Shown: positions 308-13,436, numbered from the stretch's first letter. The stretch is DNA of 13,436 bases from Candidatus Eiseniibacteriota bacterium (GCA_031364845.1 JANLWX010000219.1:1-13436); one strand, 5' to 3'. Numbers and translations are program-made. Notes: generated by a model not told the origin, from the sequence alone.

Positions 308-2467
308 ATGCCCGCACCGGCCTTCGTGCTCGCCACACTGATCCTGCTCACTGCATGGGCGAATGCCGCATGGTCCGCCGCCCCCGGCGTCGGCGAAGCG
401 ATCGGCGAGCGCATCGTGCGGTTCCACGCCGATGCGCCGTCGCGCGCGGCGGCACTTCCTTCGATCGCCCTGCAGCGACCGTTTCCCGCCACCGGGCCCG
501 TGCCCGCACACTTCGCGACGGTCCCCGAATTCTCATCGCAGGGCGGAGTTCAGACCGCGCGCATCGCGACCGCGCGCGGCACGTCGCTCTACGGCACCGG
601 AATGGTGGGCGGCCCGCTGCTGCGCAACGGTCGGGTCGTCACGTGCTGGAACACCGATGCCTACGGCTACGGCATGGACTCGCCCTCGCTCTACCAGTCG
701 CACCCGTGGGTGCTCGGCGTGCGCGCCGATGGCAGCGCGTTCGGCGTCTTCGCCGACACACCGGGCAAGGTGGTGGTCGATCTGCGCGACGGCATCGAGT
801 TCAAAGCACAGGGCTCGGCGTTCGCGGTGATCGTCATCGAGCGACCCGGTCCCGAGGACGTGATGCGCGCACTCGCGAGCCTGACCGGCACCATGCCGAT
901 GCCGCCACGCTGGGCGCTCGGCTATCAGCAGTGCCGCTACTCGTACTTCCCGGATTCCGAAGTGGTGCGAATCGCCTCCGAGTTCCGCCGCCGTGACATT
1001 CCATGCGACGTCGTGTGGATGGACATCGACTACATGGACGGCTACCGCTCGTTCACGTTCGACCCGCGACACTTCTCGAATCCCGCGGCACTCAACGACA
1101 CGCTCCACCGGATGGGATTCCACTCGGTGTGGATCATCGATCCTGGAATCCGCCGCGAGCCGGGCTTCCGTGTGTACGATGAAGGCACAGCCGGCGACCA
1201 CTGGGTGTTGAACGCCGACGGCACACCGTACGTGGGCCGCGTGTGGCCGGGGCCGTGCGTGTTTCCCGACTTCACGCGCGCGGCGTCGCGCGCCTGGTGG
1301 GCGCAGCAGACGCGCGACTTCGCGCAAAGCGGTGCCGACGGGATCTGGAACGACATGAACGAGCCCGCGGTGTTCGACGTCGACGGCAAATCGATGCCGA
1401 ACTCGAATCGTCATCGCGCCGACGCCGAGCTGGGCGGACCGGGTCCGCATGCGCGCTATCACAACGTGTACGGCATGCAGATGGCGCGCGCGACGCGCGA
1501 AGGTCTGTTGGCGGCCCGCCCCGACCGGCGTCCGTTCGTGCTGAGCCGCGCGAATCATCTCGGCGGCCAGCGCGTGGCCGCAGCGTGGACCGGCGACAAT
1601 CAGGCGACGTGGCCGCATCTGCAGGCGTCGATCGCGATGGTGCTGAACCTCGGGCTCTCGGGCCAGCCGTTTTCGGGTCCCGACATCGGCGGCTTCGCGG
1701 GCTCCGGCGACGGGCCGCTGTTCGCGCGCTGGATGGGAATCGGAGCACTGCTGCCGTTCGCGCGCGGCCACAGCGAGAAGGGCACCTCGCGCAAGGAGCC
1801 GTGGTCGTTCGGCGCGGAGGTCGAGAACACCTGCCGGCGCGCGATCGCCACGCGCTACCGCCTGCTGCCCTACCTCTATGGAGTATTCCGCGAAGCGTCA
1901 CGCACCGGACTTCCGGTCGCGCGTCCCCTGCTGTTCGCCGATCCCCGCGACGCACGCCTGCGCCGCGAGGACAGCGCGTTCCTATTGGGGGCTGACCTCA
2001 TGGTGGTCGCGGACGTCACGCCCTATCGCCTGCGCGAGCCCGTGATGCCACGCGGGATCTGGCGACCGGTCGATGTCGAGGTCGGATCCGACGGCCGCGC
2101 GTCAGGCGGCACGAACACGCCCGATCCCGATCTCCCGCGCCTCCACCTGCGCGGCGGTACCATCCTCCCGCTCGGAGCGGTGGCGGAGCACTCCGCGGCG
2201 CAGTCGCTCGATTCACTCGAGCTGGTGGTGTGCCCCGACGCGAGTGGCGCCGCCACGGGCACGCTCTACGAGGATGCGGGCGACGGATTCGGCCACGAGC
2301 GCGGCGAATACCGGCTCACGCGTTTCGACGCGGTGCGGAGTGCGGACACGCTGCGGGTGACGGCCGCGATCGTCGAAGGAGACTGGAAGGCGAAGGCCGG
2401 CCGCGTCTATCGCGTGCGCGTGATCGAGGCACCGCGCACGGCGGCGCGCGTGGTGATCGGACCCTGA
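308..2467 (+). CDS. Secreted glycoside hydrolase family 31 (alpha-glucosidase II-like), 719 aa
   Basis: GH31 motifs LYQSHPW, PPRWALGYQQCRYSY, DVVWMDIDYMDG, catalytic nucleophile WNDMNEP, HNVYG, acid/base WTGDN, GPDIGGF, PFARGH, RYRLLPYLY and C-terminal LYEDAGDG (DUF5110-like). Hydrophobic N-terminal signal peptide ending ANA/AWS-A. Confidence 0.95.
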   Translation: MPAPAFVLATLILLTAWANAAWSAAPGVGEAIGERIVRFHADAPSRAAALPSIALQRPFPATGPVPAHFATVPEFSSQGGVQTARIATARGTSLYGTGMVGGPLLRNGRVVTCWNTDAYGYGMDSPSLYQSHPWVLGVRADGSAFGVFADTPGKVVVDLRDGIEFKAQGSAFAVIVIERPGPEDVMRALASLTGTMPMPPRWALGYQQCRYSYFPDSEVVRIASEFRRRDIPCDVVWMDIDYMDGYRSFTFDPRHFSNPAALNDTLHRMGFHSVWIIDPGIRREPGFRVYDEGTAGDHWVLNADGTPYVGRVWPGPCVFPDFTRAASRAWWAQQTRDFAQSGADGIWNDMNEPAVFDVDGKSMPNSNRHRADAELGGPGPHARYHNVYGMQMARATREGLLAARPDRRPFVLSRANHLGGQRVAAAWTGDNQATWPHLQASIAMVLNLGLSGQPFSGPDIGGFAGSGDGPLFARWMGIGALLPFARGHSEKGTSRKEPWSFGAEVENTCRRAIATRYRLLPYLYGVFREASRTGLPVARPLLFADPRDARLRREDSAFLLGADLMVVADVTPYRLREPVMPRGIWRPVDVEVGSDGRASGGTNTPDPDLPRLHLRGGTILPLGAVAEHSAAQSLDSLELVVCPDASGAATGTLYEDAGDGFGHERGEYRLTRFDAVRSADTLRVTAAIVEGDWKAKAGRVYRVRVIEAPRTAARVVIGP

Positions 2468-2477
2468 GTACCCGGAA

Positions 2478-3005
2478 CTAGCGAGCTGGCTCCGGTGCGC
2501 CCGGCGTCTGCGCCACCGTCGCCGCATTCACGAGATCGGTGATCGTCCCGGGCGCAGTCGCGTCCACGTAAGGCGCGCGAATCGCGATGTTCGAGAAGTT
2601 CGACCAGTTGGGAACTTCATCCGCGGTCCGCAGGATGAAGTACCAGGTCTGCGCCGGCGAGAGTCCGCGCACCGAGACCGAGTCGACCGCACCCGCGACG
2701 GACGGTGAAGGCATGCTGCTCACCATCGTCGCCGCGTTCCACCACGAGGTCGTATCGGTGCCCGAGATCGCGACGTTGCGATATCGCATCTCGTAGCGCG
2801 CCGCGCGGCCGGTGGTCCCGTCGTCGCCGGGGGCGTTCCAGGCGAGCGTCGCCGTCGAGTCGCGGGAGGTCGCCTGGGCATGCGCGGTCCCGGCGCACGC
2901 GCTGCCGAGCAGCGCGCACAGCACGACGAGGCCTTTGCCCATGCGCCGGATGCGACGCTCGATTCCGCGGGGGGTCCCGCGGTCTGCGACCGGAATCGCC
3001 TGCAT
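2478..3005 (-). CDS. Small secreted fibronectin type III-like protein, 175 aa
   Basis: GGAGG SD 5 nt before ATG 3005. Basic n-region, hydrophobic LVVLCALLG and AHA|Q cleavage site. FN3 subtype motifs LAWNAPGDDG..G.A.RYEMRY, VRGLSPAQTWYF and ADEVPNWSNFSN. Alternative start ATG 2942. Confidence 0.85.
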   Translation of the reverse strand: MQAIPVADRGTPRGIERRIRRMGKGLVVLCALLGSACAGTAHAQATSRDSTATLAWNAPGDDGTTGRAARYEMRYRNVAISGTDTTSWWNAATMVSSMPSPSVAGAVDSVSVRGLSPAQTWYFILRTADEVPNWSNFSNIAIRAPYVDATAPGTITDLVNAATVAQTPGAPEPAR

Positions 3006-3046
3006 GTCATCCTCCAGCCCCGTTTCGCGGTGGCTAGCTCGCTGGC

Positions 3047-3062
3047 TGCAAGCCGGATGCCG
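3047..3062 (-). promoter_or_regulatory. Candidate sigma54 (-24/-12) promoter for the FN3 gene
   Basis: Minus strand CGGCAT-CCGGC-TTGCA versus consensus TGGCAC-N5-TTGCW, with exact GG-N10-GC spacing. Predicted TSS ~3036, just upstream of the GGAGG SD at 3015-3011. Confidence 0.65.
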
Positions 3063-3272
3063 CTACCAACCGTCCGCGTTTCGCGGCCCGGCCGGAGCGC
3101 GCCACCGGACGTCGCGAGCGCGATGCCGTCTGTGGCCATCCGTCGCGATCGCCGTCGCTTGCAGTCGTTTCGGCGCGTGTCTCCCCGGTCGCTGCGCCAC
3201 CGGCCGTGAACCGATTCTCCGCGGACCGCGACGCGCCCCGGTGTCGTCGATTCCGGCAGAAAGCCCGGCGGC

Positions 3273-3307
3273 CTCGTGCAACGCGCAAGGGGACTGCGTC
3301 GCACGAG
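3273..3307. repeat. Imperfect inverted repeat (candidate activator site or hairpin)
   Basis: CTCGTGC-A-ACGC (3273-3284) / 11-nt spacer / GCGT-C-GCACGAG (3296-3307): 11 of 12 positions pair. Confidence 0.5.
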
Positions 3308-3376
3308 CACACTCCCAGGTTCATGATCCCACCCAAGTCCTTGCGCGCACGCAACGTGGCCGCGCGTGAAACGGGC

Positions 3377-3392
3377 AGGCCTCGTTCGTGCT
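3377..3392 (+). promoter_or_regulatory. Weaker candidate sigma54 promoter for the phosphatase pair
   Basis: AGGCCT-CGTTC-GTGCT: GG-N10-GC spacing with GGC and TGCT conserved, about 100 nt upstream of GTG 3496. Confidence 0.35.
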
Positions 3393-3495
3393 TCGAATTC
3401 GAGCCCCCTCATCCATTGCCGGCGGAACCTCCGCTTTCCCTTCTTCGACTCGGGCGCGACTTTCGTACTGAAGATCCACATCCCGGCGAGGCCCC

Positions 3496-4800
3496 GTGTT
3501 CCCTTACTCCCGTCGTCAGCTTTCGCGCCATCGCCTGGCCATCGCGGCCTGCGCCCTCGCATGGATCGGAAACGCCGGCCTCGCGTTCGCCGCGGACGAG
3601 ATCCATTGGACTCTGATGGGCCAGAGCGCGGTCACGTTCGACTGGCGGGGATCCGAAACCGCGATCGAGTTCGGCACGACGTCCGGCTCCTACACGCGCT
3701 CGGTCACCGCGGTCACGCCGAGTCCGCTGCCCAACTCCTCGAGCGGTCCGTTCCGCGAAGCGCGCATCACCGGACTCGCCGAGAACACGCTCTACTACTA
3801 CCGGATCGGCACCGGCGCCGAGCGCACGTTCCGCACGCCGCCGCCGCGCGGAGGATCCGGTTTCTGGGTTGGGAGTCTCGCCGACATCGGCAGTTCGCTC
3901 AGTTACTCCGGCGTGGTGCCGACCCAGCAGCAGATGGGCGCCGACAATCCGAACATCGATGGGGACGACCGGCCGCGCTTCGTCGTCGTGCCCGGCGATC
4001 TCACGTACGGCGACGACAAGGGCAAACCGCACGTCGATCAGCATTTCAACGACGTGATGGCGTGGTCGCAGGAAGCGGCCTACATGGTGATCTGGGGCAA
4101 CCACGAGTGGGGTTCGAGCGTCGACGATCTGCAGAACTACGAAGGCCGCTTCGACTTCCCGAACTCGCAGACCTCTCCCGGTGCGCCCTCGGCCGGCGGA
4201 CCGGGCGAGGACTGGTACTGGTTCGACTACGGCAACACGCGCTTCATCGCGTTCCCCGAGCCCTACAGCGGCGCGTGGAGCGACTGGAAGACCAAAGCCG
4301 ATGCCGTGATGGCGCAGGCCCAGAGCGACCCGGCGATCACATTCATCGTGACATGGGGCCACCGGCCCGCGTGGTCTTCGGGCGGTGATCACCCCGGCGA
4401 GTCGCAGATCGCGACCATCCTGCGCGACCTGCACGCGAAGCACGCGAAGTTCGTGCTGAACCTCCAGGGTCACTCGCATCACTACGAGCGCAGCGATCCC
4501 GCTCAGACCGACGGCATCACGCACGTGATCGTCGGCGGCGGCGGCTCGTCGCTCGGCGGACTCGCCTCGAAGCCGGCGTGGTCGGTCGCGCGCTCCAATC
4601 ATCTTTCGCATCTGAAGATGTTCATCTCCGCCGACCGCATCGAAGGCTACGTGGTGTGCGGTCCCGCGGGCGCTGGCAACAGCGACACGTGCACGAAGGA
4701 TACGGTCATCGACACGTGGACGATCACGGCACCCGGAGGCGGAGGCGTGAGCGATCAGGTGCCTCCCGCGCCCACACGCGGCATGCAGGTGACGAACTGA
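3496..4800 (+). CDS. Secreted purple acid phosphatase-like metallophosphoesterase with N-terminal FN3-like domain (paralog 1), 434 aa
   Basis: All five PAP metal-ligand blocks: DIG, GDLTY, GNHE, VTWGH, GHSHHYER. PAP N-domain (EIHWT..VTFDW..ARITGLAENTLYYY). Signal peptide ending AFA|ADEIHW. GAGG 4 nt before the GTG start. Confidence 0.9.
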   Translation: MFPYSRRQLSRHRLAIAACALAWIGNAGLAFAADEIHWTLMGQSAVTFDWRGSETAIEFGTTSGSYTRSVTAVTPSPLPNSSSGPFREARITGLAENTLYYYRIGTGAERTFRTPPPRGGSGFWVGSLADIGSSLSYSGVVPTQQQMGADNPNIDGDDRPRFVVVPGDLTYGDDKGKPHVDQHFNDVMAWSQEAAYMVIWGNHEWGSSVDDLQNYEGRFDFPNSQTSPGAPSAGGPGEDWYWFDYGNTRFIAFPEPYSGAWSDWKTKADAVMAQAQSDPAITFIVTWGHRPAWSSGGDHPGESQIATILRDLHAKHAKFVLNLQGHSHHYERSDPAQTDGITHVIVGGGGSSLGGLASKPAWSVARSNHLSHLKMFISADRIEGYVVCGPAGAGNSDTCTKDTVIDTWTITAPGGGGVSDQVPPAPTRGMQVTN

Positions 4801-6062
4801 TGCGACGCGAATTGCGTGTGCACCTGATCGCGCTGGGCCTGGTCGGTTCCTTCGCGGTACCGGCGATGGCGGCCGACGAGATCCACTGGACGCTCATGGG
4901 CCCGACCTCGGTCACCATCGACTGGCGCGGCAACGAGTCGATCGTGCGCTACGGGATCACGCCGGCCTACGGCCAGCAGGCGACGACCATCACGCCTTAC
5001 CCGATGCCGTTCTCCTCACCCGGTCCCTTCCGCGAAGCGCGCATCACCGGGCTCGCCGAGAACACGCTCTACTACTACTCGATCGGAAACGATGGCGGCA
5101 CGTTCCGCACTCCGCCCGCGCGCGGCAGCACCGACTTCGATGTCGCGGTCGCCGGCGACGTCGGGGACTCGGTCTCGTACTACCGGTGGGTTCCGGGCGT
5201 GGCGCGACAGATCGCGAACATGGCGCCGCGCTTCACGTTGATGGTCGGAGATCTCACTTACGGCAACGCGCACGGACAGGCGGCCGTCGACCAGCACTTC
5301 AACGACATGATGGTGTGGTCGCGCAACGCCGCCTACATGCCGGCGTGGGGCAACCACGAATGGGACGTTCCGGCGAACGACGACCTGCGAAACTACAAAG
5401 GCCGCTTCGACCTGCCGAATGCGCGCACGTCGCCCGGCTCACCGACCGTGGGCTGCTGCGGCGAAGACTGGTACTGGTTCGACTATGGCAACGCGCGGTT
5501 CATCGCCTACCCCGAACCGTGGACGGGCGCGTGGGCGGCGTGGAGGAACAGCGCCGACTCCCTCATGACGGCGGTCGCGAACGATCCCCAGATCCAGTAC
5601 ATCGTCACCTTCGGCCATCGCCCAGCCTATTCGTCCGCGCATCATCCCGGCGAAACGACGCTCAAGAACTACCTCGATGCGCTCGGGGCCAAGCATCCGA
5701 AGTACGTGCTCAACCTGAACGGCCACAGCCACAACTACGAGCGCACGCATCCGCAGCAGGGCGTGGTCCACATCACGGCCGGCGACGGCGGCGCCACGCA
5801 CGAGACCGACGGCAGCTGCAAGTGGAAGATGTGCACGTCGCCGTCGTGGTCGGCGTACCGCGCGTTCCGCCACGGACCGGTGCGGCTGCGTTTCACGCGC
5901 ACCGGCATTCAGGGCGCGGCGATTTGCGGGCCCGCCGCGACGAACGACGACATCCAGTGCACGCTCGGGACCGCGTTCGATTCGTTCGTGATCCCGTCGC
6001 CGGTCGCCGTCACCGACGCTGCAAAACCGGCGACGACTACGAACCTCTCGGTACGCCCATAG
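4800..6062 (+). CDS. Secreted purple acid phosphatase-like metallophosphoesterase (paralog 2), 420 aa
   Basis: True start is ATG 4800, overlapping the upstream stop (TGATG). Signal peptide MRRELRVHLIALGLVGSFAVPAMA|ADEIHW. Motifs DVG, GDLTY, GNHE, VTFGH, GHSHNYER. Colinear with paralog 1. Confidence 0.9.
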   Translation: MRRELRVHLIALGLVGSFAVPAMAADEIHWTLMGPTSVTIDWRGNESIVRYGITPAYGQQATTITPYPMPFSSPGPFREARITGLAENTLYYYSIGNDGGTFRTPPARGSTDFDVAVAGDVGDSVSYYRWVPGVARQIANMAPRFTLMVGDLTYGNAHGQAAVDQHFNDMMVWSRNAAYMPAWGNHEWDVPANDDLRNYKGRFDLPNARTSPGSPTVGCCGEDWYWFDYGNARFIAYPEPWTGAWAAWRNSADSLMTAVANDPQIQYIVTFGHRPAYSSAHHPGETTLKNYLDALGAKHPKYVLNLNGHSHNYERTHPQQGVVHITAGDGGATHETDGSCKWKMCTSPSWSAYRAFRHGPVRLRFTRTGIQGAAICGPAATNDDIQCTLGTAFDSFVIPSPVAVTDAAKPATTTNLSVRP

Positions 6063-6065
6063 CTA

Positions 6066-9000
6066 CTAGTGGGCGATGACGAACCGTCCCGTCGTGCGCC
6101 CATCGGCTGAGTTCACGCGATAGAAGTAGATCCCCGCCGGCAAACGCGCGCCCGTGGCGTCGCGGCCGTCGACTTCGAGGTGATGGGGCCCGGCATCCGC
6201 GAACGCTTCATCTGCCAGCGTGCGCACTGTGCGGCCCGCGGCGTCGAACAGCACGACCTCGAGCGGCCCGGCCCTGGCGGTCGCAAACATCAGGCGGCCG
6301 CGGCCGAACATCGGATTGGGCGCCATGCGCGGCGCCTGGGATAACGCAGCGGCGAGATCGGGAGCCGCGAGCGGTGGCGGCGGCGCTTCGAACTCGCGCA
6401 CCGAGATGTTGTCGACGTAGAACGACTCGCTCCCGAGCACCGGCTCGTCCAGGATCTGCAGGTCGATCGCACTGTTGCTCGCCAGGGCGACACGATCGAC
6501 CGTGATCTGCTTCCACGTCGTTCCGAGCGCCACATAGGACGAGAATGTGGTCGGACCTTGCTGCGCGCTCCCGACCCATTCGCGCACCTGGAGCCGGCAA
6601 CTGCCGGCACTTGCGGAGGCCTTCACCCACGCGCTGATTCGGTACTTGGTGCCGGCCTGCGCGACGACCGGGATCACATTGGGACTGTCGTTGAGCCCGA
6701 ACAGTCCGAACGTGATGGGCCCTGCGATGCGCGCGCAATATCCACCGTCCTGCCCGCCGGTCACGCGCGTGACGGTCGCGGTGCCGTAGGCGTTCCATCC
6801 AGTGAGCGCCGCTTCGAACGACGGATTCGCGACCAGATTCGGGCCCAAGGTATCCGACGGCGGCGGCGTGGCGGCGAACACCGTCACGGTCGCGGTGTCC
6901 AGGGCGCCGAAGGAGTCGGTGACGATGACCTTCGCGTTCCAGACCCCCGCGGTGTACGTGTGCCCTGCACTGGGCTCGGAGCGCGTCATGACCGATCCGT
7001 CACCGAACTCGAAACGATATGAAGCAATCGGACCATCGGGATCGCTGGATCCGGTGGCATTGAGCGTGGCGATCAGCGGAGCCAGCCCCGACGCGGGTGT
7101 GGCCGTGAGCACCGCGTTCGGCCGCCGGTTGCCGGTGCCCCCCACCGCGATCGATGAGGTGACGGAGCTCGCGGCGCCATTGTCGTCGGTCACCGTCGTC
7201 GTCAGCGTCCAATTGCCGTTGCCGTAGGTGTGCGGCGCACGCGGCGAGGACTGCGGCCCCACGATGGTTCCGTCGCCGAAGTCGAAGCGATAGCTCGCCG
7301 GGCGTCCATCGGCGTCGGTCGACGCCGAGGCGTTCGCGATCACGACGTGCGGTGCCGCGGGCGCAGCGCCGGGAGTGGCGAGCGCGCGGGCATCGGCGAC
7401 GTATGCCTTCACGTCGTTGGTCGTTCCGCACGTCGAGCAGCGCTGCCGCCAGTTGCTCCCCCACAGGACCCGCCGGCCATCGGGCGAAGGGACACCATGG
7501 CCCTCGCATCGATAACAGTTGGTGAAGTCGGTGTGGATGTGGGCGAACCGCTGAACCGTCTTGCTGCCGTCCATCTTCACCGCAACGATCTCGCTCGTGA
7601 ATCGCTTGCCCGCCTCCGGGTAATACGTCACGTACGCCCAGCCCGGACGCTGCAGATTGCGGGTCGAAACGTGATGCGCGTAGGCCTCGTTGGTGGGATC
7701 GGTGAGCGACGTCACCACGCCGTCCTTGAGACGCACCATCGTGACGCCGCCCATCAGCTTTCCATTGAGCTTCTCGCCGCGATAGCCGCAGTGCTCCTGG
7801 CCGATGATCACGTCCTCATTGTTGTCGTACGGATTCATCGCCATGTCCGCATGTCCCAGCTCGTAGACGAATCCGAGCGAAGCACTGCCGCTGCAGCGGG
7901 GCGATGTCGAGGGCATCGGGCGCGACGTGAGCGCCAACGTCACCGGATTCACGTCGAGCACCCGCAGGCTCTCGTCGTGGTACTTGATCATCACGTACTT
8001 GCCGGACGGCGAGATCGACACCCAGTCCGCCGCGCATCCGCCGCTGATCCCGCATCCGCCGAGATCGAATGCCGGGCCGATGCGCGAGTTCGGATACGGC
8101 AGCAGCGGCGCCTGCGGATCCATGTCGACCACGAACACGCGGGTCGCGTCGAACAGGGCGATGAAGCGGCCGTCATCGGAGACGTTGCCTTCGGAAGCGC
8201 CGATGCCGCGCACGTTGAACGGCGTCGGCCACGAGCGGGTCTTCGTGCAGTCGACCACGTCGATCCACGCCAGTTCGTCACCGCTCACGCTGATGCGCTC
8301 GTTCGCATGCGCCGGACTCGGATGCCAGCGGTCGTCGCCGTGCCGGTGTTCGGTGCACTGCTCGTAGCGGACGGCGTAGGTCTCGCCATCGAGATAGACG
8401 CGCGTGGGCGTGGCGTCCTCGTTGTCGATCGCGATCAGCGTGTGGGTCGAGTTCCACGGCTGATCCTTGGCGTAGTGGTGGCGTGCATCGACCGCCCACC
8501 GGCCACTGCCGAACGACGTCGACAGAGAGGTTCCGGTCACACCGGTGATTCGCGTCACGGTCGTGCTGAACACGGGATCCGTGTAGGTCGCGAGATAGCC
8601 GGGCAATGGCATCAGCGGCTCGGTGTACACCTTGCTCGAGTCGCGCGGGATCGCGCGGAAGCCCGGCGCGAACGGCGCTTCGACCGTGACGGACGCGACG
8701 GGTGCCACGTTCGGCGGGCGCACCGTGATCACGCGCGACGCGGTCGCGGTCGCACCCAGATCGTCGGTCACGGTGAGCGTCGCGGTCCACGTTCCACGCA
8801 TGTAGACGTGGCTGGTCGAGCTGCCGCTCTGTGACACCGCGGAACTTCCGTCGCCGAAGTCGAACCGATAGTTCGCGATGCGGCCGTCGACATCCGAGCT
8901 GCCCGAACCGCTGAGCGTGACCGTCAGCGGCTCCTTGCCCTCGCCCGGCGTGAGCGCGATCGCGGCCACCGGCGGCACGTCGACGCGAATCGGAACACTG

Positions 9001-10733
9001 GTGGCGGCGACGTTGCCGGCGGCATCCGTCGCGCGCACGGTCACGGTCCAGTTGCCGAGACCGAGCGTGCGGGTCGCGGTCGGGCTCGACTGCGGGCCGA
9101 TCACGGTGCCGTCACCGAAATCGAAACGATACGACGCGATGGTACCTTCGACATCGCTCGAAGCCGCGGCGTTCGCGGTGACCGCGAGCGGCGGAGCGCC
9201 GCTGGTCGGGCTCAACGAGAGCCGCGCGACCGGTGCTGTTCCCGTCGGAAGGAACTCGAACGCCCCGCGCTCGGCGTAGGCCACCGTGCCGCGCCCGGAG
9301 TTGGGAGTTGCGGAATCGTCGGCGCGTGCGCGGCTGGCGCCGTCGGTCGCGGGCCAGTCGGTGACCGACGCATTGCCCGAGTCGATCAGCGGGGATCCCG
9401 CGGCGGGACGGAAATCGGCGGCCGCCGGATCGACGAACCACGGGTCGGCGACGATCGAGCGCGCTTCCTGGCCCGAGGCGGACGCGAACGAGGCGAGCGT
9501 CGAATACTCACTCGAGCCCCACTTTACGAGCGCGCGGCCCGGGCTCCACCACACGTTGTCGCTCGAGGCGAACCCCGACCGGGAGGCCGAGTCGATCCAC
9601 AGGTCGTAACCGTTCGGCACTTCGCCGTTTCCGCCCGCGACGCAGTTGTACAACGAGGTGTTCGGTGAACTCTCGCACGAGAATCCGTAGCGCCCGTTCT
9701 CCCACGCCACGTTGCCGACATTGCGGTTGCCGCCCGAAGACAGATGCTCGAATCCGTCGTCGCCGTTCGACCACGCCCGGTTCTGAAGAATCTTGTTGCC
9801 GGTGGACGACGAGGACAGCAGCAGTCCCGAACGCAGATTGTGATGCAGTCGGCAGCGCTGGACCGTCACACCGGTCGTCGCATAGAGCCGGATGCCCGCG
9901 GCTTCCGGTCCATTGGGCACTCCGTTGGAGTGCGACTCGATGTCCTGCAACACGCCGCTGGTGGCACCGTTCACGTACACGCCGTGCTCGCCGTTGCCCC
10001 ACGCGAGCGCCGGGCCGATCGAAACCGGAGACGAACTCGCCGTCGTGATGCCGTAGCGCCAGCACTGAATCAGCGTGTCGGAGCGCATCACCACATTGTT
10101 GGATCCGCTGGTCAGCGTGATTCCACGATCTTCGGCGCGGGCGATGGTGATGCCTTCGATCGTGATCCACGACTTGCCGGAGAGCCGGAATCCAAAGTCA
10201 CGGCGTCCGACCTTGACCGTGCGGGTGCCGGGATTGACGCCGCCGTAGCGAACGTAGAGACCCTGTCCGAGCGTCCAGCGGAACGAGTTCTGCGGGAGCG
10301 ATGACGCCGAGGCCGAGGACTTGGTGAGGCGCACGCCACCCACGAACACCTGCTCGGGGCTCCACGTGACGGCGGAGGCCAGGAATACCTCGCCCGAGTA
10401 GACCGCCCATTTGATGCTCGACGAGAAATCGTCGGCGCCGTCCACGATGACGTTTCCGCTGACGCTGCGGACCGTGAACGGTGCGCTGGAACTCCCGCCC
10501 GCCGAGAACTCGATTTCCTCGGCGTAGGTTCCCGGCTTCACGTTCACCGTGTTGCCGGGGCCGCCGCGCGCGCTGACGGCGGCCTGAATCGTCTTGTAGG
10601 GGGCGGACTCCGTCCCCGATCCCCCATCGGAAGCAGCAGGATGTGAACGATCGACCCAATAGGTTCCCGCGTGAACGGGTACAGCAAGCATGAGAGCGGC
10701 GGCCACGAGGGCGGCTCGTGCGACGAAACGCAA
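6066..10733 (-). CDS. Large secreted modular protein, 1555 aa: DUF1565/right-handed beta-helix + choice-of-anchor-Q-like segment, 4 PKD domains, unknown beta-propeller, CBM4/9-like domain, FlgD-Ig/T9SS-like C-terminal domain
   Basis: TTG start with GGAAGG upstream; signal peptide ending VHA|G. TYWV..ASD..SGT..APYKTIQAA..PG.TV.VKPGTY.E then N-ladder repeats and DPWF..DFRP..GSPLIDSG..ERGAFE (10667-9252). Four S.D.DG.I.SYRF[DE]FGDG PKD units (~9236-6876). Propeller blades ISPSGKY and PSPDGRRVLWGSNW. NLVANPSFE...FYVDNISV (6839-6393). PNP...FDAAGRTVRTL...DGRD..G.RLPAGIYFYRV tail. Confidence 0.9.
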   Translation of the reverse strand: MRFVARAALVAAALMLAVPVHAGTYWVDRSHPAASDGGSGTESAPYKTIQAAVSARGGPGNTVNVKPGTYAEEIEFSAGGSSSAPFTVRSVSGNVIVDGADDFSSSIKWAVYSGEVFLASAVTWSPEQVFVGGVRLTKSSASASSLPQNSFRWTLGQGLYVRYGGVNPGTRTVKVGRRDFGFRLSGKSWITIEGITIARAEDRGITLTSGSNNVVMRSDTLIQCWRYGITTASSSPVSIGPALAWGNGEHGVYVNGATSGVLQDIESHSNGVPNGPEAAGIRLYATTGVTVQRCRLHHNLRSGLLLSSSSTGNKILQNRAWSNGDDGFEHLSSGGNRNVGNVAWENGRYGFSCESSPNTSLYNCVAGGNGEVPNGYDLWIDSASRSGFASSDNVWWSPGRALVKWGSSEYSTLASFASASGQEARSIVADPWFVDPAAADFRPAAGSPLIDSGNASVTDWPATDGASRARADDSATPNSGRGTVAYAERGAFEFLPTGTAPVARLSLSPTSGAPPLAVTANAAASSDVEGTIASYRFDFGDGTVIGPQSSPTATRTLGLGNWTVTVRATDAAGNVAATSVPIRVDVPPVAAIALTPGEGKEPLTVTLSGSGSSDVDGRIANYRFDFGDGSSAVSQSGSSTSHVYMRGTWTATLTVTDDLGATATASRVITVRPPNVAPVASVTVEAPFAPGFRAIPRDSSKVYTEPLMPLPGYLATYTDPVFSTTVTRITGVTGTSLSTSFGSGRWAVDARHHYAKDQPWNSTHTLIAIDNEDATPTRVYLDGETYAVRYEQCTEHRHGDDRWHPSPAHANERISVSGDELAWIDVVDCTKTRSWPTPFNVRGIGASEGNVSDDGRFIALFDATRVFVVDMDPQAPLLPYPNSRIGPAFDLGGCGISGGCAADWVSISPSGKYVMIKYHDESLRVLDVNPVTLALTSRPMPSTSPRCSGSASLGFVYELGHADMAMNPYDNNEDVIIGQEHCGYRGEKLNGKLMGGVTMVRLKDGVVTSLTDPTNEAYAHHVSTRNLQRPGWAYVTYYPEAGKRFTSEIVAVKMDGSKTVQRFAHIHTDFTNCYRCEGHGVPSPDGRRVLWGSNWRQRCSTCGTTNDVKAYVADARALATPGAAPAAPHVVIANASASTDADGRPASYRFDFGDGTIVGPQSSPRAPHTYGNGNWTLTTTVTDDNGAASSVTSSIAVGGTGNRRPNAVLTATPASGLAPLIATLNATGSSDPDGPIASYRFEFGDGSVMTRSEPSAGHTYTAGVWNAKVIVTDSFGALDTATVTVFAATPPPSDTLGPNLVANPSFEAALTGWNAYGTATVTRVTGGQDGGYCARIAGPITFGLFGLNDSPNVIPVVAQAGTKYRISAWVKASASAGSCRLQVREWVGSAQQGPTTFSSYVALGTTWKQITVDRVALASNSAIDLQILDEPVLGSESFYVDNISVREFEAPPPPLAAPDLAAALSQAPRMAPNPMFGRGRLMFATARAGPLEVVLFDAAGRTVRTLADEAFADAGPHHLEVDGRDATGARLPAGIYFYRVNSADGRTTGRFVIAH

Positions 10734-10931: not shown

Positions 10932-13436
10932 TCAGTTGACGACGACGAGGCTTCCCGAACGAACGCCCTCACTCGCCTCGACACGGTAGTAGTAGACACC
11001 CGCCGGCAGCCGCGCGCCGTGATCGTCGCGGCCGTCGACGGCGAACGTGTGGCGGCCCGGCTCGAACGTCATACCCTCAGAAAGTGTGCGAACGACGCGG
11101 CCTCGAACGTCATACAGCTTCGCGCGCACGACGCCGGCCTTCGTCAAGGAAAGTCGCAGCGTCGCCGTGGGCCGCGCCGGGTTCGGCCCGATCGAAGCAC
11201 CGAACTCGACGAACGGAAGCGTCACCGTCAGCGATTCCGGAGCGCTCGGGGGCTCCACGACCGACCCATTTTCGTCCGGTGCTCGCCGACTCGCCAACGC
11301 ATTTCCGGGGGTCGGAGCGACGTAAACGAGGACATCGTCGACCATGAACGACTCGCCCGGGGCGACCGGCGTGTCGATCACCTGGAAGTCGATATTGCGG
11401 CCGCTGCCGGAGGAGACGAAGTCGACGCTCACGAGCTGCCATGCGGCCGACAGTGTAACCGGCGAAGAGTAGACCACCGGGCCGACCTGAACTCCGAGCG
11501 CGGTGTACTCGCGGAGCTTGATCCGGACCTGGCCCGTGCTCGATGCCGATCGCACGCGGGCCACGTAGCGGTAGCGCGTGCCGCCGGTGGTCGAGTTGAC
11601 GATGTTCGGGCTGTCGTTGATGCCGAACACAACGTTCGAAGCAGGACCGGATGCCTGGCAGGCGAACCCACCCGAATAGCCGCCCGCGATTCGCGTGAGC
11701 GTCGAGCCGCCGTTCTGGCCCCAGCCGTTGAGGTTCGTTTCGAACGACGGATTCGACACCAGGTTCACGATGTTGTCGTTCACCGTGATCGCGACTGCCG
11801 CATTGCCACTCAACGCGTTGGTCGCCGTGAAGGACACCATATAAGGAGCAGGGCGGCCGTCGTTCCAGGCCGGCGTCCACGTGAAGGTTCCACCGGTGCG
11901 GCTCGCGTTGGGCGTGAACACGGCGGAGTTCCCTGCAGGAAGACCGGCGAAGCTGACCACCAGCGACACGATCGAGTCACCGTCAGCATCGGAAACGGTC
12001 ACCGTGACCGACTTCGGCTCGCCTTCGTTCGCGGTCGCGGTCGCCGCCACGTTGACTACCGGAGCGCGGTCGATGTTCGAGATCGTGACACCCGTCGCCG
12101 CACTCCCCAACAGCGCGTTCGTGGCGGTGAACGTCACCGTGTAGGGCCCACCGGCAGCCTGGTAGCCCGGAGTCCAAGAGAACGTGCCGCTCGTGCGCGT
12201 GCTGTCGGGTGTGAAGGTTGCGCCCGAAGGGAGATTCGATGCGGTCAACGACAGGATGCCCTCGCCATCGGGATCGGACGCCGTCACCGAGAACGTCAGT
12301 GGCGTGTTCTCGGCACCGCTCTGGGTGGTGGGCGCGGACACGACCGGTGAACGGTCGACGTTCCCGACCGTGAGCGCCGTGCTCGTACTCGCGCTCAGCG
12401 CGTTGGTGGCGGTGAACGTAACCGTGTAGGGACCGCCTGCGACATCGTAGCCCGGCGTCCAGTTCAGCGTGCCACTGGTGCGCGTTTCATTCGCCGTGAA
12501 CGTCGCGCCCGCGGGCAGGCCGTTCGCGACCAGTGACGTCATCGCGTCACCGTCGACATCGCTCGCCGTCACCGTGATGCTCAGCAGCGTGCCTTCGGCG
12601 CCGTCGGCAGTCGCCGGAGCGGACACCACGGGGGCGCGGTCGAGGTTCGTCACCGAAACGCTCGTGCTCGAGGTTCCGCTCAGCGCGTTGGCAGCGGTGA
12701 ACGTCACCGAGTACGGACCGGGGGCCGAATCGTAGCCGGGCGTCCAGGCGAACGTGCCCGAGGTGCGGGTTCCGTCGGTGATGAACGTTGCGCCCGCCGG
12801 CAGATTACTCGCCGTCAAGGACGTGATCGCATCGCCGTCCGGATCGCTCGCCGACACCGTGATCATCAATTCCGAGATCTCGGTCGCACTCACGTTCGCG
12901 GCCGCCATCACGGCCGGCGCGCGGTCGGTGTTCACGATGGTGAGCGTCGTCGTCGCGGTTCCACTCAGCGCGTTCGACGCCGTGAATGTCAGCGTGTGGG
13001 TTCCGGCCGCCGAATAGCCCGGCGTCCACGTGACGCTGCCGCTCGTCTTGTCGCCGCTCGGCGTGAACACCGCGCCCGCGGGGAGGCCCGCGACGGTCAA
13101 TGAGTTAATGGTGTCGCCGTCGGGGTCTGACGCCGTCACCGTCAGGCTCAGAGCCGAACCCTCGGACACGCTATGTGTGGCGGCCGTCGACACGACCGGC
13201 GGCCGGTCGCCTTCGGTGATCGAGATCACGGTCGCGGCACTTGCGGTCAGCGCATTGGCCGCCGTGAACGTCACCGTGTAAGGGCCCGGTCCATCACCCG
13301 AACCCGGCGTCCACTCGAGGGTGCCGCCGGTGTTGGTTCCGTTCGGCGTGAATGTCGCTCCCGCTGGCAGGTTCAAGGCACTCAGCGACGTGATCGCGTT
13401 GCCATCCGGATCGCTCGCCGAGACCGTGAAGCTCAA
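10932..13436 (-). CDS. Large secreted Ig-repeat (He_PIG/cadherin-like) protein with CBM4/9-like and FlgD-Ig/T9SS-like C-terminal domain; 5' end lies outside the window
   Basis: Frame is open from the right edge to TGA at 10934-10932. Six Ig-like repeats, NLVSNPSFE...FMVDDVLV (11765-~11320) and PNP...YDVRGRVVRTL...DGRDDHGARLPAGVYYYRV tail. The ORF track's initial M is an internal TTG at the window edge. Confidence 0.9.
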   Translation of the reverse strand: MSFTVSASDPDGNAITSLSALNLPAGATFTPNGTNTGGTLEWTPGSGDGPGPYTVTFTAANALTASAATVISITEGDRPPVVSTAATHSVSEGSALSLTVTASDPDGDTINSLTVAGLPAGAVFTPSGDKTSGSVTWTPGYSAAGTHTLTFTASNALSGTATTTLTIVNTDRAPAVMAAANVSATEISELMITVSASDPDGDAITSLTASNLPAGATFITDGTRTSGTFAWTPGYDSAPGPYSVTFTAANALSGTSSTSVSVTNLDRAPVVSAPATADGAEGTLLSITVTASDVDGDAMTSLVANGLPAGATFTANETRTSGTLNWTPGYDVAGGPYTVTFTATNALSASTSTALTVGNVDRSPVVSAPTTQSGAENTPLTFSVTASDPDGEGILSLTASNLPSGATFTPDSTRTSGTFSWTPGYQAAGGPYTVTFTATNALLGSAATGVTISNIDRAPVVNVAATATANEGEPKSVTVTVSDADGDSIVSLVVSFAGLPAGNSAVFTPNASRTGGTFTWTPAWNDGRPAPYMVSFTATNALSGNAAVAITVNDNIVNLVSNPSFETNLNGWGQNGGSTLTRIAGGYSGGFACQASGPASNVVFGINDSPNIVNSTTGGTRYRYVARVRSASSTGQVRIKLREYTALGVQVGPVVYSSPVTLSAAWQLVSVDFVSSGSGRNIDFQVIDTPVAPGESFMVDDVLVYVAPTPGNALASRRAPDENGSVVEPPSAPESLTVTLPFVEFGASIGPNPARPTATLRLSLTKAGVVRAKLYDVRGRVVRTLSEGMTFEPGRHTFAVDGRDDHGARLPAGVYYYRVEASEGVRSGSLVVVN
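11772..13436 (-). repeat. Intragenic tandem repeat, 282-300 nt unit (94-100 aa Ig-like domain), 5 full copies plus 1 partial
   Basis: Units start at DRxP codons at 13208, 12926, 12641, 12356 and 12071 (spacing 282, 285, 285, 285). Consensus DRAPVV...E...TVTASDPDGD.I.SL...LPAGA.FT...TSGT..WTPGY...Y.VTFTA.NALS. Confidence 0.9.

Follow-up and report, generated by a model that had tools for sequence, protein, structure and literature searches.

The window considered here is a stretch of 13,436 nucleotides from a Candidatus Eiseniibacteriota bacterium (GCA_031364845.1 JANLWX010000219.1:1-13436), taken at its full length. It is contig C198 of a 4.6-Mb assembly with 66% G+C, and some homologs of its proteins carry the label Candidatus Eisenbacteria, given by their source records. 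A sequence-only reading of the window had noticed that a small FN3 protein and two neighbouring phosphatases share a C-terminal tail of the form D-x3-P-x5-[LM], and had proposed that this tail is a donor strand which completes FN3 domains lacking strand A. All three tails, and the linkers and stops of the two phosphatases, were recovered by translation at the positions given there, and the tail and the docking system that it may define are the subject of this analysis.

The small FN3 protein, called the link below, consists of 175 amino acids and is encoded on the minus strand at 2478..3005. Its predicted Sec signal peptide (residues 1-43; 2877..3005, minus strand) ends in A-H-A, with a cleavage site that lacks a lipoprotein Cys; it was recognized by eye and from homologs, and signal peptides in general were judged from hydrophobicity and by eye rather than with a predictor. 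The mature protein begins with an FN3 domain of the W-x-A-P-G-D-D-G family (2565..2876, minus strand) that starts at strand B, as delimited by the strands of an AlphaFold2 model, by Foldseek and by alignment with chitinase A1; this domain is the predicted socket. The orphan tail DATAPGTITDLV (2529..2564, minus strand), of the form D-x3-P-x2-I-x-D-L, comes next and is followed by an extension of 15 residues.

Both phosphatase genes lie on the plus strand. Phosphatase 1 (3496..4800) has a signal peptide followed by Pur_ac_phosph_N and Metallophos domains, and its open reading frame (ORF) ends in GGGGVS-DQVPPAPTRGMQVTN-stop, the degenerate tail occupying 4753..4797 with its D at 4753. Phosphatase 2 (4800..6062) begins with an ATG that shares one base with the stop codon of phosphatase 1 and ends in SPVAVT-DAAKPATTTNLSVRP-stop, the tail lying at 6015..6059 with its D at 6015. 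In both proteins the stop codon falls 3-4 residues past the hydrophobic tail position. Pur_ac_phosph_N and Metallophos exceed the Pfam cut-off in phosphatases 1 and 2, solved purple acid phosphatases are matched at E 4e-17, and the five metal-ligand blocks of this enzyme class are visible in both sequences. The two proteins, the tail-bearing cargo of the window, are thus purple-acid-phosphatase-like and predicted to be phosphatases.

Two large proteins are encoded downstream on the minus strand. The first, a 1555-aa beta-helix/PKD/CBM protein (6066..10733), carries a FlgD_ig-type C-terminal domain (CTD) at about 6102-6281. The second, an Ig-repeat/CBM protein cut by the contig end (10932..13436), carries one at about 10968-11141. 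Searches of Pfam and NCBIfam upheld the observation that these two proteins have a FlgD_ig/Por_Secre_tail CTD, of the kind recognized by secretion systems of type IX (T9SS), and that the three tail proteins do not. The same two collections, searched at E values up to 0.1, gave no match of the three tail proteins to a curated CTERM or tail family, a search that very short models can escape. A promoter and terminator scan of positions 2400-6200 gave no signal above chance.

Origin of the tail in an FN3 strand

By alignment, the tail is an orphan FN3 strand A that has been shifted to the C-terminus of enzymes and links. Its identification as the lead strand of an FN3 domain, made at first by inspection, is borne out by a profile of two-domain homologs of the link. 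It matches the FN3 domain of chitinase A1, of which the structure is solved (1k85), at E 4e-8, and the internal motif copy falls there on the first strand, at the N-terminus. In the AlphaFold2 model of one two-domain homolog (L006; mean predicted local distance difference test score, pLDDT, 90.0; predicted template-modelling score 0.57), the internal motif forms a bridge at residue 108 and a strand at 115-119, beside strand B at 123-129. The terminal copy is assigned no strand, and the pLDDT of its segment is near 90.

The AlphaFold2 model of the window link (pLDDT 82.9) contains five strands of at least three residues, from B onward, at positions 6-13, 26-32, 63-71, 77-84 and 97-99 in mature numbering. 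The tail is unpaired in this monomer model, block means dropping from 76 to 59. Foldseek returned FN3 domains at probability 1.00, with E values of 0.004 or weaker and none under 0.001, and many link homologs carry PF00041; model and sequence together assign the window link to the FN3 sandwich fold. An N-terminal strand A is missing from it: the model starts at B, and 118 of the 120 homologs show no motif ahead of their first strand B, the two that do looking N-terminally incomplete.

The repeat family concerned is large, with 13,309 cluster representatives at E 0.001 and up to 40 matched stretches in a single protein. A sample of 137 arrays of at least three repeats was drawn from the 150 best hits. 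The motif precedes the first repeat in 101 of these arrays by a strict regular expression, most of the misses showing a variant by eye. In 98 arrays no motif trails the last repeat, and in the other 39 one does and the protein runs on past it. Because the motif stands in these positions in the first and last repeats, the native order of the domain is read as A to G, and the window link as a repeat cut at the A-B loop. The spacing from SN to the D of the motif is 9-13 residues ahead of link tails in 112 of 113 cases and mostly 9-12 between tandem repeats. Similarly, the gap from strand G to the tail is about four residues in links, the same as between tandem repeats.

Several counts bear on whether the tail exceeds chance. 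Across 121 genomes of the phylum, a strict DNA pattern (the tail, three codons and TRR) was matched 60 times, in 40 genomes, and its reversed control 8 times. A true stop closes 48 of the 60, spread over 30 genomes, and TGG closes the other 12; those TGG-ended matches that came with a locus are mostly internal copies of strand A or links bearing an extension. A matrix derived from 35 phosphatase tails at greater distance, the five closest being excluded, ranks the window phosphatase tails second and fourth among 3216 C-termini of the genome, the first rank being another tail protein and the third looking like chance. In 76 loci, taken from the best 80 of at least 576 confirmed stretches, the tail stands at the C-terminus of 29 of 2580 ORFs (8 of them without an FN3 hit), compared with 1 of 9142 internal windows, and one further tail-bearing enzyme has a weak FN3-like hit. 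The gene calls made in this work, by codon or GC-frame scoring, misplace some starts and overlook two-domain links at a few loci. The looser pattern D-x3-P-x5-[LMIV] was rejected as a tail detector, its 48 C-terminal matches in the proteome lying mostly in cytoplasmic proteins.

Cargo, links and anchors

Comparison of the encoded proteins distinguishes three classes: cargo, in which an enzyme bears the tail; links, in which a strand-less FN3 domain is followed by the tail; and anchors, in which a strand-less FN3 domain is followed by a CTD. The window link is predicted to be acceptor and donor at once. In its family, 113 of 120 homologs place the tail behind the final FN3 domain, at 1-38 residues from the protein end. 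One FN3 domain only is present in 100 of the 120 close homologs, and some links contain a second, whole FN3 domain between the strand-less one and the tail. The smallest anchors, P0079 and the one at L056:9602-10210, consist of socket and CTD only.

The missing strand is tied to position in the protein. In the 76 loci, the strand-A motif is absent from 60 of the 66 FN3 domains that come directly after a hydrophobic N-terminal segment and present in 170 of the 177 other FN3 domains; the six exceptions among first domains comprise four lipoprotein-like proteins and two misclassed internal domains. Lipoprotein-like proteins of L019, L021, L027, L031 and L037 keep strand A in their first FN3 domain, unlike ordinary signal-peptide proteins. 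In the two-domain links of the genome's own family (L124, at C73:6895-10108, and L125-L143), the tail is followed by a conserved aromatic stretch, roughly G/S-F-V-W-L/F-G-W, and then by an Arg-rich end. This aromatic stretch is absent from cargo tails and from the window link.

Sequence comparison shows that the same cargo domains are followed in some proteins by the tail and in others by a CTD. A set of 120 phosphatase homologs (the best of 1014 found, limited to lengths of 227-725) comprises 40 that finish with the tail, 55 with a CTD-like end of T9SS/FlgD type and 25 with another ending, two of the last extending into a whole FN3 domain. All 40 tail phosphatases stop 1-4 residues past the Leu, with Arg or Pro often following the tail, and tail positions are conserved beyond the D and P, which are invariant by definition. 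A FastTree phylogeny of 127 catalytic cores implies 12 switches of the tail label, at least five of them forced by branches with support of at least 95; the direction of change between tail and CTD is not readable from this tree, in which phosphatase 1 sits on a long branch and is placed unsurely. A second swap of the same kind involves a domain that ends in the tail on contig C151 and shares 57% identity with the central domain of the 1555-aa protein of the window, which has a CTD. A scan of 24 proteins showed the tail also at the end of Kelch propellers, beta-helix proteins and PcRGLX-like proteins.

Five more phosphatase paralogs, on contigs C95, C168, C80, C133 and C132, lie within proteins of 950-1220 aa that end in a CTD. 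The N-terminal FN3-like domain of the phosphatases was considered as a socket and rejected on two grounds: its match to PF16656 begins at position 3, and paralogs with a tail and those with a CTD have similar starts.

Links and anchors are also neighbours in the genome. In records titled Eisenbacteria and Zixibacteria, tail-bearing links adjoin FN3 proteins that lack strand A and have a CTD, or a domain resembling one, at their C-terminus. Of 20 loci from own-family genomes, picked on an FN3 hit, 19 have link and CTD anchor as direct neighbours, and in 18, contig C73 of the present genome among them, a PorV-like gene, detected with a profile built from the genes of this genome, comes next; one miss stops at the contig edge. 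The present genome has such a link-anchor-PorV trio at C73:6895-10108, the third gene passing the cut-off of NF033709. At many loci one link gene is accompanied by one or two anchors and several cargo genes. Five presumed donors were found in this genome, namely the two phosphatases, the window link, the C73 link and the C151 protein, and the presumed acceptors are the window link, the C73 link and the C73 anchor.

SprA, PorU and PorV exceed curated cut-offs in this genome, which appears from these matches to encode a T9SS-like apparatus. Nine loci of the whole genome pass the PorV-family cut-off, and a home-made profile places a CTD-like domain at the end of 221 of its 3353 called proteins. 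In L059:4357-11425, from a record titled Gammaproteobacteria, two tail proteins neighbour an FN3 protein that lacks strand A, has FG-GAP repeats and gives no CTD hit, and the pairing of tail and socket may there work without a T9SS.

Proposed docking in trans and its alternatives

The tail is the strand that the link and its relatives lack, and it therefore likely plugs into that gap. Strand A, having moved to the C-terminus of enzymes and links, would insert in trans into an FN3 domain that starts at strand B. After Sec export, the tail would complete the seven-stranded fold of a neighbour, rebuilding non-covalently the tandem FN3 rod that related giant proteins encode as one chain. Such a chain would run from the enzyme through zero or more links to the anchor, whose CTD would provide outer-membrane export and surface attachment to partners without a CTD of their own. 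That trans donor-strand docking joins enzymes to CTD-bearing anchors is considered probable. The system itself is likely an undescribed form of docking built on a known principle, with a tail that is real and conserved.

The donor-strand proposal of the sequence-only reading is supported by the comparisons, with some qualifications. On its side, the link lacks strand A, the tail is not folded back on its own domain, which from the models it is predicted to be unable to reach, and the tail is conserved. A complex prediction adds weak support. The small FN3 protein (117 aa, own tail included) and the last 31 residues of phosphatase 2 gave a score of 0.48, compared with 0.02 for the best of three controls, with contacts agreeing between runs at 91% or more and a partner pLDDT of 57. 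The mark for this score was reached by 116 of 157 solved complexes and by 2 of 215 mismatches, and in the band at 0.60 or under it was reached by 18 of the 157 and by both mismatches. The model hints that the phosphatase 2 tail binds the small FN3 protein; the score may also reflect likeness to solved whole FN3 domains or to the halves of split domains.

A number of points weigh against docking in trans. The complex score lies in the weak band, and the 31-residue piece included the last strand of the phosphatase fold, so that the identity of the docked strand is ambiguous. The window contains no anchor gene, its link has no anchor of its own, and the CTD-bearing acceptor of this genome is on contig C73. 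Degenerate as they are, the tails of the two window phosphatases reach only 6.1 and 4.7 on a matrix made from FN3-subunit tails. The expected enrichment of the loose D-x3-P-x5-[LM] motif at C-termini did not come out clearly, the last 5-residue bin of this proteome holding 14 hits and the other 35 bins 3-14. The conserved aromatic stretch of the own-family links is not explained by the model, and passage of a docked complex across the outer membrane would have to be assumed. The loci and homologs are related, so their counts are not independent. Moreover, the FN3 family occurs in 115 of 121 genomes of the phylum, which saturates co-occurrence at the genome level and makes it uninformative; four FN3-negative genomes were still essentially negative when searched again at E 10. 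Finally, two genomes, G017 and G108, have a tail-stop match without the FN3 family. The match in G017, a 97%-complete genome, is an 83-codon ORF without a signal peptide (L108:9787-10038, G017:C25) and may be a relic, possibly after joint loss; that in G108 has a tail-matrix score of 0 and resembles a chance hit. The DNA after the short ORF of G017 resembles the DNA after a tail gene in G012.

The closest alternative keeps the strand exchange and makes its main product a long homopolymeric fibre of links, an FN3 pilus formed without a chaperone, in which enzymes would be the tips and the CTD protein the base. Socket and tail do occur together on links in tandem register, single-domain links are the commonest form among close homologs, and covalent arrays reach 40 matched stretches. 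Nothing seen here sets the length of such a chain, and the gene ratio at many loci, one link to one or two anchors and several cargo genes, fits short stalks too. A fibre as main product is rated as rather unlikely; it is a special case of docking in trans and not an alternative chemistry.

A second alternative holds that the tail, although derived from FN3 strand A, is not bound by FN3 domains and serves as a short sorting signal read by export or attachment machinery such as a PorV-family shuttle or a PorU-type enzyme. The fixed distance of the cargo tail from the protein end, often with Arg or Pro following, its alternation with the CTD, and the PorV-family gene after the link-anchor pair in a genome with nine PorV-family loci would all fit a signal of this kind, and linkage of shuttle genes to substrates is known for type B CTDs (PMC12618676). 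Such a signal leaves unexplained why the same strand is lost from FN3 domains next to signal peptides and why socket-plus-CTD proteins exist. The variable position of the tail in links, up to 38 residues from the end, and the pairing of two tail proteins with a strand-less FG-GAP FN3 protein without a CTD hit at L059 also speak against it. The sorting-signal explanation is weakened by these observations, and is judged improbable.

It is highly improbable that the tail is a functionless remnant left after loss of FN3-containing C-terminal regions. Simple truncation would fit the whole FN3 domain at the same position in two phosphatase homologs, the degenerate tails of the window phosphatases and the relic in G017. 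The tail stops at the same place across unrelated cargo families, its positions are conserved among the 40 phosphatases, stop-ended strict matches outnumber control matches by 48 to 8, and swaps with the CTD recur on the tree. The comparison with homologs cut both ways: the tail is conserved and only 2 of 120 phosphatases reach a whole FN3 domain, but 80 of 120 lack the tail, mainly because a CTD is present instead.

Circular permutation in cis, with the tail folding onto its own FN3 domain and the phosphatase tails unrelated or vestigial, would suit a B-to-G domain followed by strand A and the pLDDT near 90 of the terminal tail in the L006 model, but it was rejected as scarcely credible on the gap of about four residues from strand G to the tail, as between tandem repeats, and on the two AlphaFold2 models, in neither of which the tail is assigned a strand; also against it are the 137 arrays (98 without a trailing motif, 39 continuing past it), anchors such as L056:9602-10210 without any strand A, and cargo with a tail and no socket.

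Comparison with known systems

Docking in trans as proposed here resembles several described assemblies without matching any of them. In cellulosomes, diverse secreted enzymes share a C-terminal docking module that binds a non-catalytic, cell-anchored scaffold through cohesin-dockerin pairing. The likeness lies in the C-terminal module shared by diverse secreted enzymes; the module here differs in being a strand of about 15 residues, predicted to be fold-completing, with one socket per acceptor, and no cohesin or dockerin domain was found among the 6 window proteins or 24 scanned locus proteins. The type V pili of Bacteroidia (FimA/Mfa1) use a C-terminal donor strand, as proposed here, occur in the same superphylum, and are made from two-domain lipoprotein precursors cut by a protease. 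In contrast, the window link has no lipoprotein Cys at its predicted site and matches FN3, and no FimA/Mfa match was found by Pfam or by fold.

In the chaperone-usher Pap and Fim pili, an incomplete Ig-like sandwich is filled by a strand of the next subunit. The Pam pili of the candidate phyla radiation (CPR) take a linker strand or an N-terminal strand as donor and have chaperone genes in their operon (PMC13278184). The likeness would consist of a sandwich completed by a neighbour's strand and of tip, shaft and base from different gene products. An incomplete Ig-like sandwich is found here by analogy only, as an FN3 domain without strand A, and in place of an N-terminal or linker donor on a pilin fold there is a C-terminal donor on an FN3 fold; unrelated enzymes as donors and a linked PorV-family gene are further differences. 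In PilC/PilY, a conserved C-terminal peptide of about 10 residues adds a beta-strand to minor pilins and so tethers a large protein to a surface structure (PMC13711793). The acceptor there is a type IV minor pilin complex and not a split FN3 domain, and the tail is restricted to one adhesin family.

With T9SS cargo, the present system has in common the CTD on the anchors and on the two large window proteins, the presence of SprA, PorU and the PorV family, and a shuttle-family gene beside a presumed substrate; linkage of shuttle genes to substrates has been described for type B CTDs (PMC12618676). It differs from type A cargo in that the CTD (PF13860, TIGR04183) is missing from the three tail proteins and present on the anchors. 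The literature searched contained no case of a protein that acquires its CTD in trans by way of a split domain. Fold complementation of an incomplete sandwich in trans is documented for obscurin-like-1 Ig3 and myomesin (PMC5222588), and a strand-swapped engineered FN3 domain (PDB 4m6a) indicates that the N-terminal strand can swap. Both cases are eukaryotic or engineered single pairs in which the donor is not a reusable C-terminal tag. By the features compared, the system falls outside the chaperone-usher, type V and cellulosome classes and comes nearest to donor-strand complementation combined with cohesin-dockerin logic. No description of a split-FN3 docking tag was found in the full text searched by word match, which leaves most subscription journals outside.

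If the proposal is correct, it would account for the arrival and retention of CTD-less secreted enzymes at the surface of uncultured bacteria that have a T9SS, and would add a docking logic beside cohesin-dockerin pairing and pilin strand exchange. Thousands of short proteins annotated 'fn3, hypothetical' and of apparently truncated enzymes would become parts of one system, and a natural peptide-protein coupling pair might be obtained. With a tag of about 15 residues and a socket of about 100, the claim is cheap to test in vitro. A wider proposal, which is offered tentatively, is that in Eisenbacteria, Zixibacteria and others the split FN3 domain may constitute a general plug-and-socket code, in which plug enzymes would borrow the T9SS tag in trans, links would chain themselves into adjustable stalks without chaperone or usher, and a PorV-family shuttle would be dedicated to the system. 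A code of that generality would amount to modular surface display and to the first T9SS export by fold complementation.

Some further gene arrangements were observed. The gene at 308-2467 of the window, which converges on the link gene, is GH31 alpha-glucosidase-like and has a hydrophobic N-terminus and neither tail nor CTD. At L109 (G040:C5), in the same genus, two large CTD proteins occur with a C151-type tail protein, a tail phosphatase and a single-domain link. In another family (L111, L113, L114 and L115), a cluster of link, anchor and cargo genes lies among genes that resemble, by eye, those of exopolysaccharide synthesis, and the cargo proteins are of the Kelch-propeller, beta-helix and PcRGLX-like kinds; polysaccharides may be what the system helps to remodel.

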